Both the position numbers and the translations under genes were made by a program. A stretch of 64,000 nucleotides of DNA. Origin: a virus (taxonomy: Duplodnaviria; Caudoviricetes). Location of the stretch: positions 64,001-128,000 of IMG/VR virus record IMGVR_UViG_3300020375_000001; one strand, given 5' to 3'. Positions 29,978-53,594 of the stretch are shown here, one piece after another. The notes under the pieces are model-generated. The model did no database searches and was not told the origin of the DNA. It saw only the letters and a program-made list of their open reading frames with translations. Within the stretch, counting starts at the first letter, position 1; every line of letters starts with the position of its first letter.

Positions 29978-30676
29978 TTACGTGTATTGGGAATAATCAA
30001 TGTTAACGTAGTTACCCTTTTTATCTACAGGATAGCGCATAACCGTGTTAACGTGAATTTGGTGACTGGCTCGTTTCTTGGCAGCTTCAATTTGCTGATA
30101 CCACCAATCACGAGGTCGTACAGTTACGTGGGCATTTCGACCATCAGGTAAGAATGTTACCGCCGGACCAAGATGAATTGTAACATGCAGTACCTTAGTT
30201 GTTAGATTAAACAGTTCATCTAAGAACCAAGGAATGTCTTGTGCTGGAATATGTTCTAACACATCCGTGCACACCACCATCTCCCCAGGGAAGGTAGGAT
30301 ACTCAGAGAGCTCCTCGATTCCAGGGTCGTACATTACAACGTAAGGACGGCCAAGGTAATCATAAACAGAGTCATGAACCGGACTCATTTTATTACCTTT
30401 GTCGTCTTTCTGCACAATCGTTTTGTCGATATATGGCTTTACGAAGAACGCATCGGGGTTACCACAACCAAAGTTAATAAGAGAACGGCAATCGTTCTTA
30501 TCCATTAACCGTTTAATAACAGGAGCTTCTTTACCATACTCCCCGTTAGCAAACATCTCTTTTGGAGCGCGTTTGGTTCCGTTGGCTAAAGACCCACCTT
30601 CAGTTGAGTAGAGCAGGCGATACTGCTCTGCGAGTGAGAGGTAGTCCTCGCTCGGATTTTGTTTTGTGTATTTCAT
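29978..30676 (-). CDS. Class I SAM-dependent methyltransferase
   Basis: LINFGCG motif I, YDPG, VVCTDVLEHIP, NAHVTVRPRDWW; type often found in glycan loci. Confidence 0.8.
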   Translation of the reverse strand: MKYTKQNPSEDYLSLAEQYRLLYSTEGGSLANGTKRAPKEMFANGEYGKEAPVIKRLMDKNDCRSLINFGCGNPDAFFVKPYIDKTIVQKDDKGNKMSPVHDSVYDYLGRPYVVMYDPGIEELSEYPTFPGEMVVCTDVLEHIPAQDIPWFLDELFNLTTKVLHVTIHLGPAVTFLPDGRNAHVTVRPRDWWYQQIEAAKKRASHQIHVNTVMRYPVDKKGNYVNIDYSQYT

Positions 30677-30704
30677 TTACCTAAACTCCGCCATGTGGCT
30701 AGAC

Positions 30705-30731
30705 ATAAATAACTATAGAAGTGTAAAAATT
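30705..30731 (-). promoter_or_regulatory. Putative middle-type promoter (TTTTTACAC-N13-TATG)
   Basis: Upstream of the methyltransferase-phuZ pair. Confidence 0.5.
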
Positions 30732-30769
30732 ATATCGTCAAAAGAAAGGGACTAAGTGCCCCTAACTTT

Positions 30770-31477
30770 TTACAATTTACTATAGCTGGTAAACTGCAGT
30801 TCAGGGAATTGCTTCTCTTCACTTGTGTCGGCCAGGTACGTATTTAACGCACGACGGTCATGCATCAACTTAGCAATCTTTCCATCGGTTGTTTTCTTTG
30901 GCAACAGCCTGTCTTCATCATTACTGATAAAGCGTTCTTCTAACAAGACGTCCAATAAGAACTCTTGTACTGCATTTAGATAACGTCGAGCTTTACGTTC
31001 ATCGTCAGAGACCAGTGGCTCAACCTGTAATTCCATCCACGCTACTTTAGAACTGGGTGGGGGATTAACAAGCATGAAACAACGAGTACGGTCACGATAG
31101 AATGCAAAGTCACCAATCTCAGCATCTTCTAAATGCTGTAGGTCGGATACGTCCTCTATAGGCCACTGTGAGACAGAGACAGGGATACCACCAGGGGTTA
31201 CACCATCTCCTACCCAGAAGCGTCTGTCATCAGTCGTAAAGAGCGGTTCACCAAGGTCAGGAACAAAGGTAGGACGTGCCTCATTAAGACCAACTCGCAT
31301 CCGTATAGGTATTACTTTAGCGGTCTTTTTCTCAAGGGGAAGCTGATTCAGAGGGGCTGGTAAGCTTTTCTTCTGAGATACATCCCCTTTCTTGTCGCCC
31401 TGTTTGATAGCAGCCCTCGGACTTACATTACGGCGCGACCTTTGTGGTTTGTTGTTTATTTCACCAGACATTTTCAA
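30770..31477 (-). CDS. Tail-fibre-associated protein with Mtd_N-like domain
   Basis: GEPLFTTDDRRFWVGDGVTPGG motif; basic disordered N-terminus; chaperone-like C-terminus. Confidence 0.6.
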   Translation of the reverse strand: MKMSGEINNKPQRSRRNVSPRAAIKQGDKKGDVSQKKSLPAPLNQLPLEKKTAKVIPIRMRVGLNEARPTFVPDLGEPLFTTDDRRFWVGDGVTPGGIPVSVSQWPIEDVSDLQHLEDAEIGDFAFYRDRTRCFMLVNPPPSSKVAWMELQVEPLVSDDERKARRYLNAVQEFLLDVLLEERFISNDEDRLLPKKTTDGKIAKLMHDRRALNTYLADTSEEKQFPELQFTSYSKL

Positions 31478-31503
31478 CTTCCTCTAATTAATTTGGAGTT
31501 AAC

Positions 31504-32319
31504 ATGGGTGCTATAGAAAAAGCAATTAGCGAGGTCCGTTTTGCTATTCCTTACGAAATACTAAACGAGACTTTTAAGATAGACACCGGTTATAGTGCCA
31601 CTCGCACTGCTGGTATTAAAACTTCTCTGGAGTCACGCATCCGAGAAGAAATCCTCGATAAGAAAGTCCTTGAGGATTGTAACCTCATGGGTGGCCATGA
31701 AGTTATTGTTCCTTTAGCGGGGCTTTCCTTACGGTACGCTCAGGACAGAACCTTTGTGGTTACAATTCCTAAGAGTCGTACTGAAGGACTCAGCATTACT
31801 TCCGTACTTAGTGTTGCCCAAGCACCTGATGGTTGGATGGGTAGCGTGTACACTAATGCAAACGCAATGAATAGCTTCTCCAATCGAATGGATGCTATCA
31901 TGCAAGGAAGTATTGGTGGCGGTAACATGGCTCGTATAGAGGCCCGAGTAAGACTCATCGGTGATAACGTGGTATACGTTAAAATGATTGATGAGACTAT
32001 GTCGGACTTGTTCTTACGTTGCCGTGTAGGGTCAGACGAAAACATGTCTCGTCTTCCTGCCGCCTATTGGTTGGACTTCTCCAAACTTGTCATCTTGGCT
32101 ACCAAGGCCCACATCTTCAGAGAACTTGCCATCCGGATGGATGAAGGTCAGCTGTCGGGCGGTCTTAATCTTGGTCGCTTTAAAGAGACGGTTGATGAGT
32201 ATGCTGATGCTCACCAAATGTACAATGAGTTCATCCATGATAGTTGGCCACGTATAGCGGCCTTGACTGATGAGGAACGACATAGTCGGGTAATCCAACA
32301 TCAATTTGGAAGACCATAA
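31504..32319 (+). CDS. Conserved phiKZ-like virion structural protein
   Basis: 271 aa, plus strand late-type orientation; resemblance recalled, not searched. Confidence 0.5.
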   Translation: MGAIEKAISEVRFAIPYEILNETFKIDTGYSATRTAGIKTSLESRIREEILDKKVLEDCNLMGGHEVIVPLAGLSLRYAQDRTFVVTIPKSRTEGLSITSVLSVAQAPDGWMGSVYTNANAMNSFSNRMDAIMQGSIGGGNMARIEARVRLIGDNVVYVKMIDETMSDLFLRCRVGSDENMSRLPAAYWLDFSKLVILATKAHIFRELAIRMDEGQLSGGLNLGRFKETVDEYADAHQMYNEFIHDSWPRIAALTDEERHSRVIQHQFGRP

Positions 32320-51799: not shown

Positions 51800-51810
51800 G
51801 GGGACAGGTT

Positions 51811-52350
51811 ATGTCTGAAACAATTGCTATTTGTTACCTTGATGATAAGGATAACGTTGTTGGACTGAAATACGACAATGGTATATTCAAGGTTAACGAA
51901 GGAACCCCTACGGAAAAAACCCTACCGTACCCCTATGAGCGTATCTTCCCTACAAATTTTCTGATAGTGGATAATGGCGCAGTGCGGGTCTATACCACTG
52001 AAGAACTGGCAATGCAGGGTAGGATAGAAGAAGCGGAAAGGGCCCGTAACAAGGCCATTAATGAACCCATTGTGGTACATGGTGAAATATGGAAAATGAA
52101 CCTACGGGACCGCAACAATATTCAAGACGGTATCGATGAAGCCGCTATGAATAATTTACCCGATGACTACAAGCAAGATTGGATTATGGCAGATGGGTCC
52201 ATATTTATTGCCACACCGTTAAAACTCAAACAAGTCCTAGCTGCTTATCGTCAACGTAAAAAGCAAATCTATGACCACTACATTGCGTGGTTAAGTGCTG
52301 GGGCAATTGAGGATTACCACTGCGATTGCAACAATGAATTCACGTATTAA
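51811..52350 (+). CDS. DUF4376-like tail fibre assembly protein
   Basis: ERARNKAI..PI.V.G..W, DWIMADGS pattern. Confidence 0.7.
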   Translation: MSETIAICYLDDKDNVVGLKYDNGIFKVNEGTPTEKTLPYPYERIFPTNFLIVDNGAVRVYTTEELAMQGRIEEAERARNKAINEPIVVHGEIWKMNLRDRNNIQDGIDEAAMNNLPDDYKQDWIMADGSIFIATPLKLKQVLAAYRQRKKQIYDHYIAWLSAGAIEDYHCDCNNEFTY

Positions 52351-52360
52351 AGGATAGTCC

Positions 52361-52957
52361 ATGAGTACTCCTATTATAGTGAGACACGGTTTGGAGACAG
52401 ACCGTGCTAATTTTACTCCGGCTATCGGCGAATGGATTTTTGCCACGGATTCCAAGCGTAGTTACATGGGTGATGGTGTCACGCCGGGTGGATTAAATGT
52501 TGTCAAGAAACATTTTGACGTGGAAACTTTTGATGATATTGCCAACATTGGCTTTAGTCGTGATGGCGACACCTGTGACGTAACCGCTACCAATAAAGTA
52601 TACATTCGAGTCAATGGGACCTGGATTAATATCTATACTCCGGTAGAACCCGTCACGTGGAATCAACCGACACTAAATGCAGGTTGGACTAATTATGGTA
52701 ATGACACGTCGCCCGTTAGATATACTAAACGTGATAACGTAGTTTATCTTGAAGGTAGTTGTAGCCGGACTAACGAAGAAGATGTCATCTTCACACTACC
52801 TGTAGGTTATCGACCAGAGTACGATATCACCAATGTGGTTTTTGGGTTTAGTGGCGTTATGCGCATGGATATCCTTAACACTGGGGAAGTAACCCTGATA
52901 ACCAACGGTACCGTAGATTGGGTATCGTTTAACATTAGTTATATAGTTGGGGGGTAA
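52361..52957 (+). CDS. Short tail-fibre/receptor-binding protein (Mtd_N plus beta-sandwich head)
   Basis: IGEWIFATDSKRSYMGDGVTPGG; WNQPTLNAGW...IFTLPVGYRP head. Confidence 0.7.
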   Translation: MSTPIIVRHGLETDRANFTPAIGEWIFATDSKRSYMGDGVTPGGLNVVKKHFDVETFDDIANIGFSRDGDTCDVTATNKVYIRVNGTWINIYTPVEPVTWNQPTLNAGWTNYGNDTSPVRYTKRDNVVYLEGSCSRTNEEDVIFTLPVGYRPEYDITNVVFGFSGVMRMDILNTGEVTLITNGTVDWVSFNISYIVGG

Positions 52958-52958
52958 C

Positions 52959-53594
52959 ATGGTTGAAACTAATGGTAATGTGTTTAGTCTGGGCGAGGCT
53001 TTCTCGTTTGCGATATCTGAGCACCCCGACACTATATTAGATGTCGGTATAACGGTTGTTGACCCCGTAACAATGAAACTTGTCGTTGGCGATGGCATTA
53101 CTAAAGGCGGCATCCCACCCAAAGGTAAAATCTGGAAAGTCCCTTCTTTAAATACTGCCTCTAAACGCAGATTTATAGTTGGAGACTATCTACTGGTAGA
53201 CGACGCCGACTATTATTACGTTGGTAGCGACGGTGTAGATAAAGTACTATTACGAGACGGTAGTAGTCTGATGGGTTGGAAAACCCTTACCCTTAATAGC
53301 GGGTGGCGTGAGAGTAACGATGCTGGCGGTGAACCTAGGGTCCGTAAAGATGGTAACCTAGTCACTATCGATGCAATGCTGGGTAAGGACAAGAAAAGTG
53401 AATACTCGCCTTTCCGATTACCTAGCTGGGCGCGACCCAATCGACTGATGTGCATGGTTATTGAATGTAATTATGGCTACGGCACTACGCCGTTGGTAGT
53501 TTATCCTGACGGGTGGGTTTATCCTTGGGCAATTGCCACCAGAAGTTGTAGTCGGGTATCTATACAACTAAGTTTCTGGGTAGAACCAAGTTAA
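52959..53594 (+). CDS. Short tail-fibre/receptor-binding protein, paralog of the preceding gene
   Basis: VGDGITKGG; WKTLTLNSGW...FRLPSWARP. Confidence 0.7.
   Translation: MVETNGNVFSLGEAFSFAISEHPDTILDVGITVVDPVTMKLVVGDGITKGGIPPKGKIWKVPSLNTASKRRFIVGDYLLVDDADYYYVGSDGVDKVLLRDGSSLMGWKTLTLNSGWRESNDAGGEPRVRKDGNLVTIDAMLGKDKKSEYSPFRLPSWARPNRLMCMVIECNYGYGTTPLVVYPDGWVYPWAIATRSCSRVSIQLSFWVEPS

Follow-up and report, generated by a model that had tools for sequence, protein, structure and literature searches.

The closest described relatives of the protein at the centre of this report are bacterial transferases of 3-deoxy-manno-octulosonate (Kdo), namely KpsC and KpsS of glycosyltransferase (GT) family GT107, WbbB of GT99 and KrkA of GT140. 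Retaining Kdo transferases keep a QXXXD motif, a (K/R)XHP motif, a Ser pair on the phosphate of cytidine monophosphate (CMP) and a ribose-binding Glu; QXXXD stands at the start of the C-terminal Rossmann domain and supplies both the Asp nucleophile and the Gln that binds the Kdo carboxylate (PMC12887879, the 2026 KrkA paper). Here we describe a candidate glycosylation system in 64,000 nt of phage DNA (the window), bases 64001-128000 of the 207,748-bp IMG/VR viral record IMGVR_UViG_3300020375_000001, which has direct terminal repeats. Its core is a soluble GT-B-like protein, P0001, a GT8-type transferase, a methyltransferase and a kdsB-kdsD pair for the supply of CMP-Kdo. From comparative genomics and structure prediction, we consider it reasonably probable that this system O-glycosylates mucin-like fibre proteins of the virion with Kdo.

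Parts of this arrangement recur in other systems. Mycobacteriophage-encoded GTs reportedly modify capsid and tail proteins (a result ascribed to Freeman et al., 2023), and like those described here they are cytoplasmic enzymes beside structural genes that are presumed to decorate the phage's own particle; they differ in being GT-A/GT2-type enzymes that use uridine diphosphate (UDP) sugars in actinobacterial hosts, and their system lacks Kdo, a sugar-nucleotide synthesis module and a giant mucin-like acceptor. The Gram-positive serine-rich-repeat adhesins also combine a very long Ser/Thr-rich repeat protein with dedicated cytoplasmic GTs: an active GT-B works there with a catalytically dead GT-B paralogue (GtfA/GtfB), much as an apparently active P0001 coexists here with a motif-dead paralogue, P0178, and GT8 enzymes such as GlyE (PDB 5gvv), itself among the PDB matches of the phage GT8 profile, act as extenders. 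P0001 has no sequence relation to GtfA/GtfB, however, the adhesin donor is UDP-N-acetylglucosamine rather than the CMP-Kdo proposed here, and the context here is viral. Giant viruses also carry Kdo genes as partial pathways. The kdsA/kdsB genes of cyanophage S-SCSM2R (PMC12801897) are likewise a virus-borne part of the pathway, but neither these nor the giant-virus genes are linked to a transferase or an acceptor, their published interpretation is modification of the host surface, and S-SCSM2R is not among the tblastn matches of P0001. Finally, the Maf flagellin O-glycosyltransferases act in the cytoplasm, where they attach a CMP-activated keto-sugar acid to Ser/Thr on the surface of a filament protein, and one of them, CbMaf, can use Kdo (PMC11339370); Maf belongs to an unrelated fold family (MptE-like/DUF115) and its acceptors are folded flagellins, not low-complexity repeats.

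A GT-B-like protein related to KpsC

P0001 (Table 1) has no match in Pfam or NCBIfam, a PHROG of unknown function matches it, and the Pfam model of KpsC and KpsS, Capsule_synth (PF05159), has no match anywhere in the genome at E<=10. An AlphaFold2 (AF2) model built with 11 homologues (pLDDT 81, pTM 0.80) nevertheless has KpsC and its kin as its best structural neighbours. In VIA-align these are KpsC (6mgb, Z 8.8 over 213 residues; 6mgd, Z 7.9), WbbB (5fa0, Z 8.1 over 196 residues) and KrkA (9yfx, Z 6.8), which outrank all other full-length structural matches, with sialyltransferases next at about Z 6 and over the C-terminal domain only. Foldseek against the PDB also puts KpsC, KrkA and WbbB on top, and the neighbours in the AlphaFold database are mostly named 'capsule polysaccharide biosynthesis protein'. 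The model supports a GT-B fold of the Kdo/sialyl type.

Profile comparison places KpsC first as well. An 11-sequence profile of P0001 found no match among PDB sequences, and a 96-member family profile had KpsC as its best match there (E 0.16); aligned by hhalign to the C-terminal module of E. coli KpsC (for which, as for KpsS, the CFT073 kps locus was used), the family gave a probability of 94.4% and E 8.5e-8, and the KpsC N-terminal module and KpsS aligned more weakly. The aligned blocks, family before KpsC, are DKY/SKY, LPG/VPG, KPHP/KPHP and T-SE..lyA.llGK/TSLSGFEALLHGK, so that P0001 shares with KpsC, WbbB and KrkA the SKY/DKY, PG, (K)xHP and T-S..G.EALL.GK blocks in a GT-B-like two-domain build.

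The motifs of P0001 itself are K151-P-H153-P154 (KxHP) and S195-T196-E197-L-G. Across the 96-member alignment K110, K151, H153 and P154 are invariant, and D55, Y111, G128, N130, E197, K207, S241 and G242 are at least 90% conserved. The (K/R)XHP motif aligns to KPHP/KVHP of KpsC, and S195-T196-E197, 42 residues past H153 where about 42-44 are expected, aligns with TSL/TSQ of KpsC; by analogy with KrkA, the Ser/Thr pair and the Glu would contact the phosphate and the ribose. QXXXD, which in E. coli KpsC and KpsS reads QTFND, QVEDD and QVYND, is absent from all 96 members: LPG(S/T)N stands opposite VPGQV of KpsC, with Ser/Thr for the Gln, no Asp or Glu is conserved within residues 126-150, and the 'EDD' segment of KpsC falls in a gap. 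Because this nucleophile motif is lacking, P0001 is a relative of the GT107/GT99 enzymes and not a member, and a double-displacement mechanism is unlikely. The preliminary description of the window, made from its sequence, had called P0001 a KpsS/KpsC-type beta-Kdo transferase with KxHP and ST..G motifs; the motifs, the GT-B fold and the kinship hold, and the assignment to the GT99/GT107 type does not. P0001 differs from KpsC, WbbB and KrkA further in being a small standalone soluble protein without a Capsule_synth match, and its acceptor would be a Ser/Thr-rich protein, not a glycolipid or O-antigen.

P0001 is 84% and 83% identical to its homologues in two complete relatives, G001 (206 kb) and G002 (218 kb), which with a 148-kb fragment, G003, form a jumbo-phage clade with the genome under study (G000). 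No other gene of its block is as well conserved (84% identity, whereas the core gene DUF7484 has 74%). Its C-terminal tail is polybasic (Lys/Arg-rich), a feature of only 3 of the 96 family members, all in the jumbo clade.

CMP-Kdo supply and the adjoining transferase

The coupled kdsB-kdsD pair of the preliminary description is confirmed. KdsB, the sole CTP_transf_3 gene product of the genome, passes the TIGR00466 equivalog model (232.8 bits, cut-off 155.2; PF02348 at 2.2e-55) and keeps the catalytic residues, which by the assignments of PMC3149649 are a P-loop Arg and Lys (here R23 and K32) and two Mg-binding Asp (D115, of QGDEP, and the Asp of GIDT). KdsD passes TIGR00393, KpsF/GutQ (335.2 bits, cut-off 203.7; SIS 4.6e-26, CBS 3.7e-16), and falls below the narrow E. 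coli KdsD equivalog model (310 vs 505 bits). The TAA stop of kdsB overlaps the ATG start of kdsD (TAATG), so that the two are translationally coupled. In G001 and G002, kdsB, kdsD, the GT8 gene and P0001 all lie at syntenic positions, a co-occurrence that the preliminary description had named as a check, with identities of 54% and 50% for KdsB and 72% and 65% for KdsD. The pair stands 14 kb from P0001 on the opposite strand.

Neither kdsA nor kdsC was found in a search of the whole 207.7-kb terminal-repeat genome, which extends to the rest of the phage what had been said of the window. Their lack is no obstacle to the proposal, since group 2 capsule loci of E. coli also carry second copies of kpsF and kpsU alone, the CFT073 kps locus having KpsF and KpsU alone beside KpsC and KpsS; in this respect the phage resembles the kps loci, where the same two functions accompany the transferases. 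The 241-residue ORF (open reading frame) behind kdsD keeps that place in G001 and G002 (42% and 40% identity); it has no Pfam, NCBIfam or PHROG match and no homologues outside the clade, and its AF2 model is poor (pLDDT 53).

The gene directly after P0001 had been described as GT8-like, and at family level that assignment is supported. Its own PF01501 score is 17.7 bits, under the cut-off of 24.3, and all ten of its homologues match the model (best 9.5e-20); the family profile finds WbbM (6u4b, 1.1e-6) and LgtC (1g9r, 1.8e-5) in the PDB. K-P-W is invariant, within a retained H-K-P-W, and the DxD motif reads H90-T-D92 and varies among homologues. The gene adjoins the P0001 homologue in G001, G002 and G003, and so does, on the upstream side, the 121-residue coiled-coil protein (61%, 63% and 40% identity). 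Coiled-coil protein, P0001 and GT8 form an apparent three-gene unit on their 3-4 nt spacing and synteny only; a scan for consensus terminators found no clear one after the GT8 gene. Directly behind that gene lies a 276-residue ORF without a family match (35202-36032, minus strand), which looks like a clade-specific insertion because G001, G002 and G003 have no counterpart there.

The methyltransferase is of class I and dependent on S-adenosylmethionine (SAM), as had been proposed, but the label 'glycan-locus-type' goes beyond what its sequence can support. It matches Methyltransf_23-like clusters, mostly viral, in the ESM Atlas, is syntenic in G001-G003, and possibly methylates the glycan or the acceptor; the order methyltransferase, DUF7484, coiled-coil, P0001, GT8 is retained even in the distant G003. 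Among its ESM Atlas neighbours are viral 700-residue fusions of FkbM and Methyltransf_23 with an MptE-like (Maf-type) domain, which hint at other phage systems that move keto-sugar acids onto proteins. No transmembrane segment was found in P0001, the GT8 protein, the methyltransferase, KdsB or KdsD, as had been stated for the transferases; all are soluble, and no amphipathic anchor was seen.

Table 1. Features of the window and of the outlying Ser/Thr-rich locus. Positions are those of the window unless marked as genome or locus positions.
Feature	Position	Strand	Length (aa)	Remarks
PhuZ-type tubulin	28971-29960			TubZ_C_2 at 3.6e-11
Class I SAM-dependent methyltransferase	29978-30676	-	232	phrog_24759 at 5.7e-14
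Mtd_N-like, fibre-like protein	30770-31477	-	235	20.1 bits, under the 26.3 cut-off; between methyltransferase and DUF7484
DUF7484 core gene	31504-32319			common to 267 cultured phiKZ-like jumbo-phage records
Coiled-coil protein	32913-33278	+	121	4 nt upstream of P0001; weak DUF16 and fibrinogen coiled-coil matches
P0001, GT-B-like, putative CMP-Kdo:protein (Ser/Thr) Kdo transferase	33283-34149	+	288	soluble
GT8-family (GT-A, retaining-type) glycosyltransferase	34153-35142	+	329	3 nt after P0001
ORF, may belong to the kdsBD operon	47809-48534	-	241	17 nt downstream of kdsD
kdsD/kpsF, arabinose-5-phosphate isomerase (SIS + 2 CBS)	48552-49508	-	318	TIGR00393
kdsB, CMP-Kdo synthetase (3-deoxy-manno-octulosonate cytidylyltransferase)	49508-50287	-	259	TIGR00466, PF02348
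DUF4376 protein	51811-52350	+		33.3 bits, cut-off 25
Mtd_N-domain small fibre-like protein	52361-52957	+		26.6 bits, cut-off 26.3
ORF	52947-53594	+	215	no Mtd_N match
Thr/Ser-rich protein	within genome 197614-206460 (L105:614-9460)		937	T 34%, S 18% (52% Ser+Thr); flanks P0178
P0178, divergent paralogue of P0001	genome 200439-201242 (L105:3439-4242)			outside the window
Radical-SAM gene	L105:4211-5170			overlaps P0178; PF04055 at 1e-12
Thr/Ser-rich protein	within genome 197614-206460 (L105:614-9460)		1390	T 25%, S 13% (38% Ser+Thr); flanks P0178

Occurrence with Kdo genes

A profile search of 1.84 billion cluster representatives recovered 342 clusters related to P0001, nearly all of them standalone proteins of about 290 residues, and 249 IMG/VR contigs encode a member; we regard this as a putative new, mostly viral, glycosyltransferase family. 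Cytidylyltransferases were sought in 25 of the larger family-bearing records, and one is present in all four distant records that are at least 90% complete as well as in a 47-kb fragment (G010). Judged by their best NCBIfam matches, the five are all of the KdsB type; two score above a KdsB cut-off, and the remaining three, from 70-kb phages, score under every KdsB cut-off. KdsA accompanies the KdsB-type gene in these 70-kb phages (G006, G008 and G009) and in G015, a 36-kb phage whose capsid is T7-like, and a SIS isomerase does so in the fragment. All seven metagenome-derived family-bearing genomes that are complete or have terminal repeats carry KdsB together with KdsD or KdsA; by comparison, of 50,697 phage records 8 contain a tblastn match to KdsB of G000 at E<=1e-3, and a search of viral contigs with KdsB as query returned one weak locus. 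Different phage lineages thus keep different parts of the Kdo pathway, and in all eight family-bearing records that have a CMP-sugar synthetase it is KdsB-type, with none of the NeuA, PseF or LegF type.

The family occurs in glycan-building contexts, since its neighbours include a methyltransferase in four loci and GTs of the GT4 and GT25 types. A homologue of the methyltransferase lies about 400 bp downstream of the P0001-like gene, on the same strand, at L004, L005, L019 and L020. At L037:3896-6273, and in the same layout at L032, the P0001-like gene is followed by a GT4-type gene and then by a GT25 (LPS, that is lipopolysaccharide, type) fused to an OGFOD2-like dioxygenase domain, the cassette standing behind a Thr-rich gene of 945 codons.

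Some loci of the family have features of their own. In the marine clade the conserved downstream neighbour is a GroES-like co-chaperonin (phrog_13932, 2.5e-22; L063:4383-4991 and about 60 similar loci). In the complete 35.8-kb phage G015, kdsB stands on the opposite strand between the capsid-assembly (scaffold) and major capsid genes (L092, G015:6276-9887), an unusual insertion site for a metabolic gene. One in-frame stop each interrupts the KdsA match at G009:49496-50245 (TGA) and the P0001-like match at G015:26623-27492 (TAA), and these could be sequencing errors, decay or recoding.

Ser/Thr-rich neighbours and a probable link to the virion

The gene directly upstream of the family member encodes a protein of at least 40% Ser+Thr (40-72%) in 69 of 70 distant viral loci, these being the loci with a visible upstream ORF out of 77. 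With ORFs defined by ATG, 60 of 61 adjacent ORFs reach that level as against 4 of the 209 others in the same loci, and the median Ser+Thr contents are 61% and 10%, respectively. The large upstream proteins of the metagenomic loci hold 37-48% Thr and 12-21% Ser with hardly any Asp, Glu or Gly, and their aromatic and basic residues recur periodically. Searches of PHROGs, of phages by tblastn and of the ESM Atlas returned nothing for these proteins, likely because of low-complexity filtering and poor monomer models.

In the genome under study the Ser/Thr-rich proteins lie about 70 kb downstream, outside the window, where the family profile found the second, divergent member, P0178 (Table 1). The two proteins that flank it, of 937 and 1390 residues, are the only ones above 25% Ser+Thr among the 225 ORFs of the genome, for which the median is 12.4%, and G001 and G002 have the same order of Thr-rich genes around the paralogue. 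In all three genomes the paralogue retains none of DKY, LPG-N, KPHP and the Glu, and it therefore looks like a pseudo-enzyme.

The 1390-residue protein provides a probable link to the particle. Its N-terminal 500 or so residues are of normal composition, and the repeat part of about 890 residues is about 55% Ser+Thr. The first 170-300 residues match 228 jumbo-phage records, in which, by depositor annotation, the genes are called virion structural protein (for example Goslar gp025, with a Peptidase_S74 tail-fibre chaperone domain) and in one case tail-fibre-domain protein followed by a tail assembly chaperone. We read the protein as a tail-fibre attachment domain fused to a Thr/Ser-rich repeat of about 890 residues. 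A similar position is found in cultured Caulobacter phages: in Lullwater the order is tail fibre gp40, gp41 (40% Ser+Thr), family member gp42 and holin, and in Cr30 the family member lies between large unannotated proteins and neck proteins, with neighbours of 27-30% Ser+Thr.

Proposed mechanism and alternatives

In the mechanism that we propose, KdsD would supply arabinose-5-phosphate and KdsB would activate Kdo to CMP-Kdo, the KdsA and KdsC steps being left to the Gram-negative host. P0001, soluble in the cytoplasm, would bind the CMP moiety via K151-x-H153-P154, S195-T196 and E197 and move Kdo onto Ser/Thr hydroxyls of the giant mucin-like 937- and 1390-residue proteins, the second of which would be anchored to the particle by its chimallivirus tail-fibre/virion N-terminal domain. 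As the family lacks the Asp nucleophile of QXXXD, transfer would probably be direct and inverting, yielding alpha-Kdo, with the conserved D55 or E69 of the N-terminal domain as the base, as in sialyltransferases. The adjacent GT8 enzyme probably extends the glycan, the methyltransferase may methylate it, and the motif-dead paralogue between the fibre genes may act as a substrate-binding partner. O-linked Kdo on protein appears enzymatically feasible, because a promiscuous Maf transferase yields it on Ser/Thr (PMC11339370).

This proposal keeps much of the preliminary description, in which the phage raised its supply of CMP-Kdo and used the GT-B and GT8 enzymes to glycosylate its own particle. 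Co-occurrence, the Ser/Thr-rich neighbours and the virion-type N-terminal domain speak for it, whereas the likely acceptors are the two giant Thr/Ser-rich proteins and not the small Mtd_N proteins of the window. A 'Kdo-primed' glycan is a plausible reading: in most distant loci no transferase other than this one stands beside the presumed acceptor.

Several observations weigh against Kdo O-glycosylation of fibres. With Z 8-9 and Foldseek E ~1e-3, the structural matches score modestly, in a range that common Rossmann arrangements reach too, and the missing QXXXD defines all characterised KpsC/WbbB/KrkA-type Kdo transferases, so that the chemistry of P0001, and even its donor, could differ. LPS or capsule, rather than protein, is the substrate of the nearest characterised homologues of each of the four enzymes. 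The link to KdsB is not universal, as Cr30 and Lullwater have a family member and no cytidylyltransferase, and in those phages the host would need to supply the CMP-Kdo. All 77 distant loci fall into one broad clade (one cluster at 50% identity), so that independent lineages are few; and in the jumbo phage the intact P0001 lies about 100 kb from the Thr-rich genes, which only the motif-dead paralogue adjoins. It could also be that the Thr-rich repeats are structural, as Thr-ladder beta-solenoids, without glycosylation.

The preliminary description had allowed for a glycan on a host receptor instead, and a wider form of that idea is remodelling of the host envelope, in which more CMP-Kdo would be made and P0001 and GT8, working from the cytoplasmic side of the inner membrane, would modify LPS core or capsule or lipid-linked intermediates, the altered surface serving, for example, superinfection exclusion or reducing adsorption of progeny to debris. 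The substrates of the nearest relatives (KpsC, KpsS and WbbB, and for GT8 LgtC and WbbM) point this way, as do the kpsF/kpsU logic of capsule loci, a polybasic tail that could bind anionic membrane, and the reading of the cyanophage kdsA/kdsB as host cell-surface modification genes (PMC12801897). It leaves unexplained, however, why the family stands near-universally right behind genes for proteins of 40-72% Ser+Thr, and why the placement is late or structural, in the interval between tail fibre and holin in Lullwater and just before the neck proteins in Cr30; the polybasic tail, moreover, is restricted to the jumbo clade, and the proteins show no membrane anchor. We judge envelope remodelling to be unlikely, and the receptor alternative is weakened with it. 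A similar judgement, if anything a little more sceptical, applies to the idea that P0001 uses another CMP-sugar, such as a host nonulosonic acid, or has a non-catalytic role in fibre assembly, with kdsBD as a separate auxiliary metabolic module. Several sialyltransferase families also have KxHP and S-S/T motifs (PMC12887879), and sialyltransferases come next among the structural matches; the Gln that binds the Kdo carboxylate is lost with QXXXD; and kdsB is absent from the two Caulobacter phages and distant from P0001 in the jumbo phage. Against this stand the exclusively KdsB-type synthetases, found alongside KdsA or KdsD, and the invariant K, H, P and E, which argue for a working nucleotide site, unlike the paralogue that has none of them.

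DNA hypermodification in the style of RB69 or DLP3 would instead have the arabinose-5-phosphate isomerase feed a nucleotide-sugar pathway and the transferases glycosylate modified cytosines, with the polybasic tail of P0001 binding DNA. A phage-encoded isomerase of this kind is a hallmark of the arabinosyl-hydroxycytosine phages (PMC13326640, PMC6024577), P0001 is a GT-B protein with a Lys/Arg-rich tail, and a thymidylate-synthase-family gene lies 4.5 kb from kdsB. That gene, though, is the sole one of its family, passes the thymidylate synthase equivalog model (121.6 vs 108.35 bits) and has as its partner a gene like that of dihydrofolate reductase (DHFR), so that it is a gene of ordinary deoxythymidylate synthesis and not a deoxycytidylate hydroxylase; the nucleotidyltransferase next to the isomerase is a true KdsB and not the MurU-like uridylyltransferase-kinase fusion that the arabinosylation pathway has along with a HAD phosphatase and GT4-type arabinosyltransferases; and P0001 resembles KpsC and has CMP motifs, unlike a UDP-dependent GT4, its basic tail being clade-specific. 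With an ordinary ThyA and DHFR and a KdsB-type cytidylyltransferase, DNA arabinosylation is rejected as highly improbable.

Phage affiliation and other genes

The phage is phiKZ-like and, on two markers, its PhuZ-type tubulin and DUF7484, probably belongs with the nucleus-forming jumbo phages; the N-terminal domain of the 1390-residue protein is likewise common to 228 phiKZ-like records. A nucleotide search with both modules against the 50,697 phage records found no match and thus no close cultured relative.

Near kdsB is a group of tail-fibre-type genes (51811-53594, plus strand) with matches to minor-tail-protein PHROGs at 1.2e-10. Three Mtd_N fibre paralogues and a DUF4376 chaperone had been described; DUF4376 and one Mtd_N protein (52361-52957) stand, the protein at 30770-31477 is below threshold and that at 52947-53594 has no match. 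By tblastn the protein at 30770-31477 is paralogous to that at 52361-52957 and to a 137-residue 'adaptor' that precedes the 937-residue Thr-rich protein; its counterpart is absent from G003, a 148-kb fragment.

Elsewhere in the window, a 149-residue protein (37207-37656, minus strand) has a weak Macro-domain match (E 0.0012, below the cut-off), is kept in all three relatives and perhaps binds or removes ADP-ribose. Between the two glycosylation modules (41634-45137, minus strand) lie a DNA/RNA non-specific endonuclease (248 residues, PF01223 at 4.5e-32), a 504-residue protein with a weak Ntox35 match and a RadC-like JAB protein (149 residues, 1.6e-30). At 53644-55787 (minus strand) the thymidylate synthase (307 residues) adjoins the DHFR-like protein (303 residues), whose first 100 or so residues form an N-terminal extension, the DHFR domain beginning near residue 102.

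Implications

To our knowledge, very few phages are known to glycosylate their virions, and no report describes Kdo as a sugar that is naturally attached to protein. In the literature, of which our coverage is incomplete, we found no description of Kdo on phage particles or of this gene pairing. A wider claim is tempting, and we give it somewhat less than an even chance: that phages widely carry undescribed mucin-like glycoproteins, of 40-72% Ser+Thr, which are O-glycosylated with Kdo by a nucleophile-less family derived from KpsC/KpsS, probably inverting and forming alpha-Kdo; that many such phages bring genes of CMP-Kdo supply, so that their virions would bear an anionic sugar coat resembling LPS core; and that in jumbo phages the cassette is enlarged by a pseudo-enzyme paralogue, a radical-SAM enzyme, a GT8 enzyme and a methyltransferase.

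Two cultured Caulobacter phages, Lullwater and Cr30, in which the transferase gene adjoins a Ser/Thr-rich gene, put the idea within reach of a direct test. If it is true, the family would be a new one with a mechanism unlike that of its capsule relatives, and a tool for putting Kdo on proteins, and it would account for the partial Kdo pathways seen as 'auxiliary metabolic genes' in viral metagenomes. Many aquatic phages, from 36-kb T7-like ones to jumbo phages of more than 200 kb, would then coat their fibres in a sugar of the bacterial envelope, with a bearing on adsorption, host range, stickiness to mucus and particles, and recognition by immune systems and grazers.

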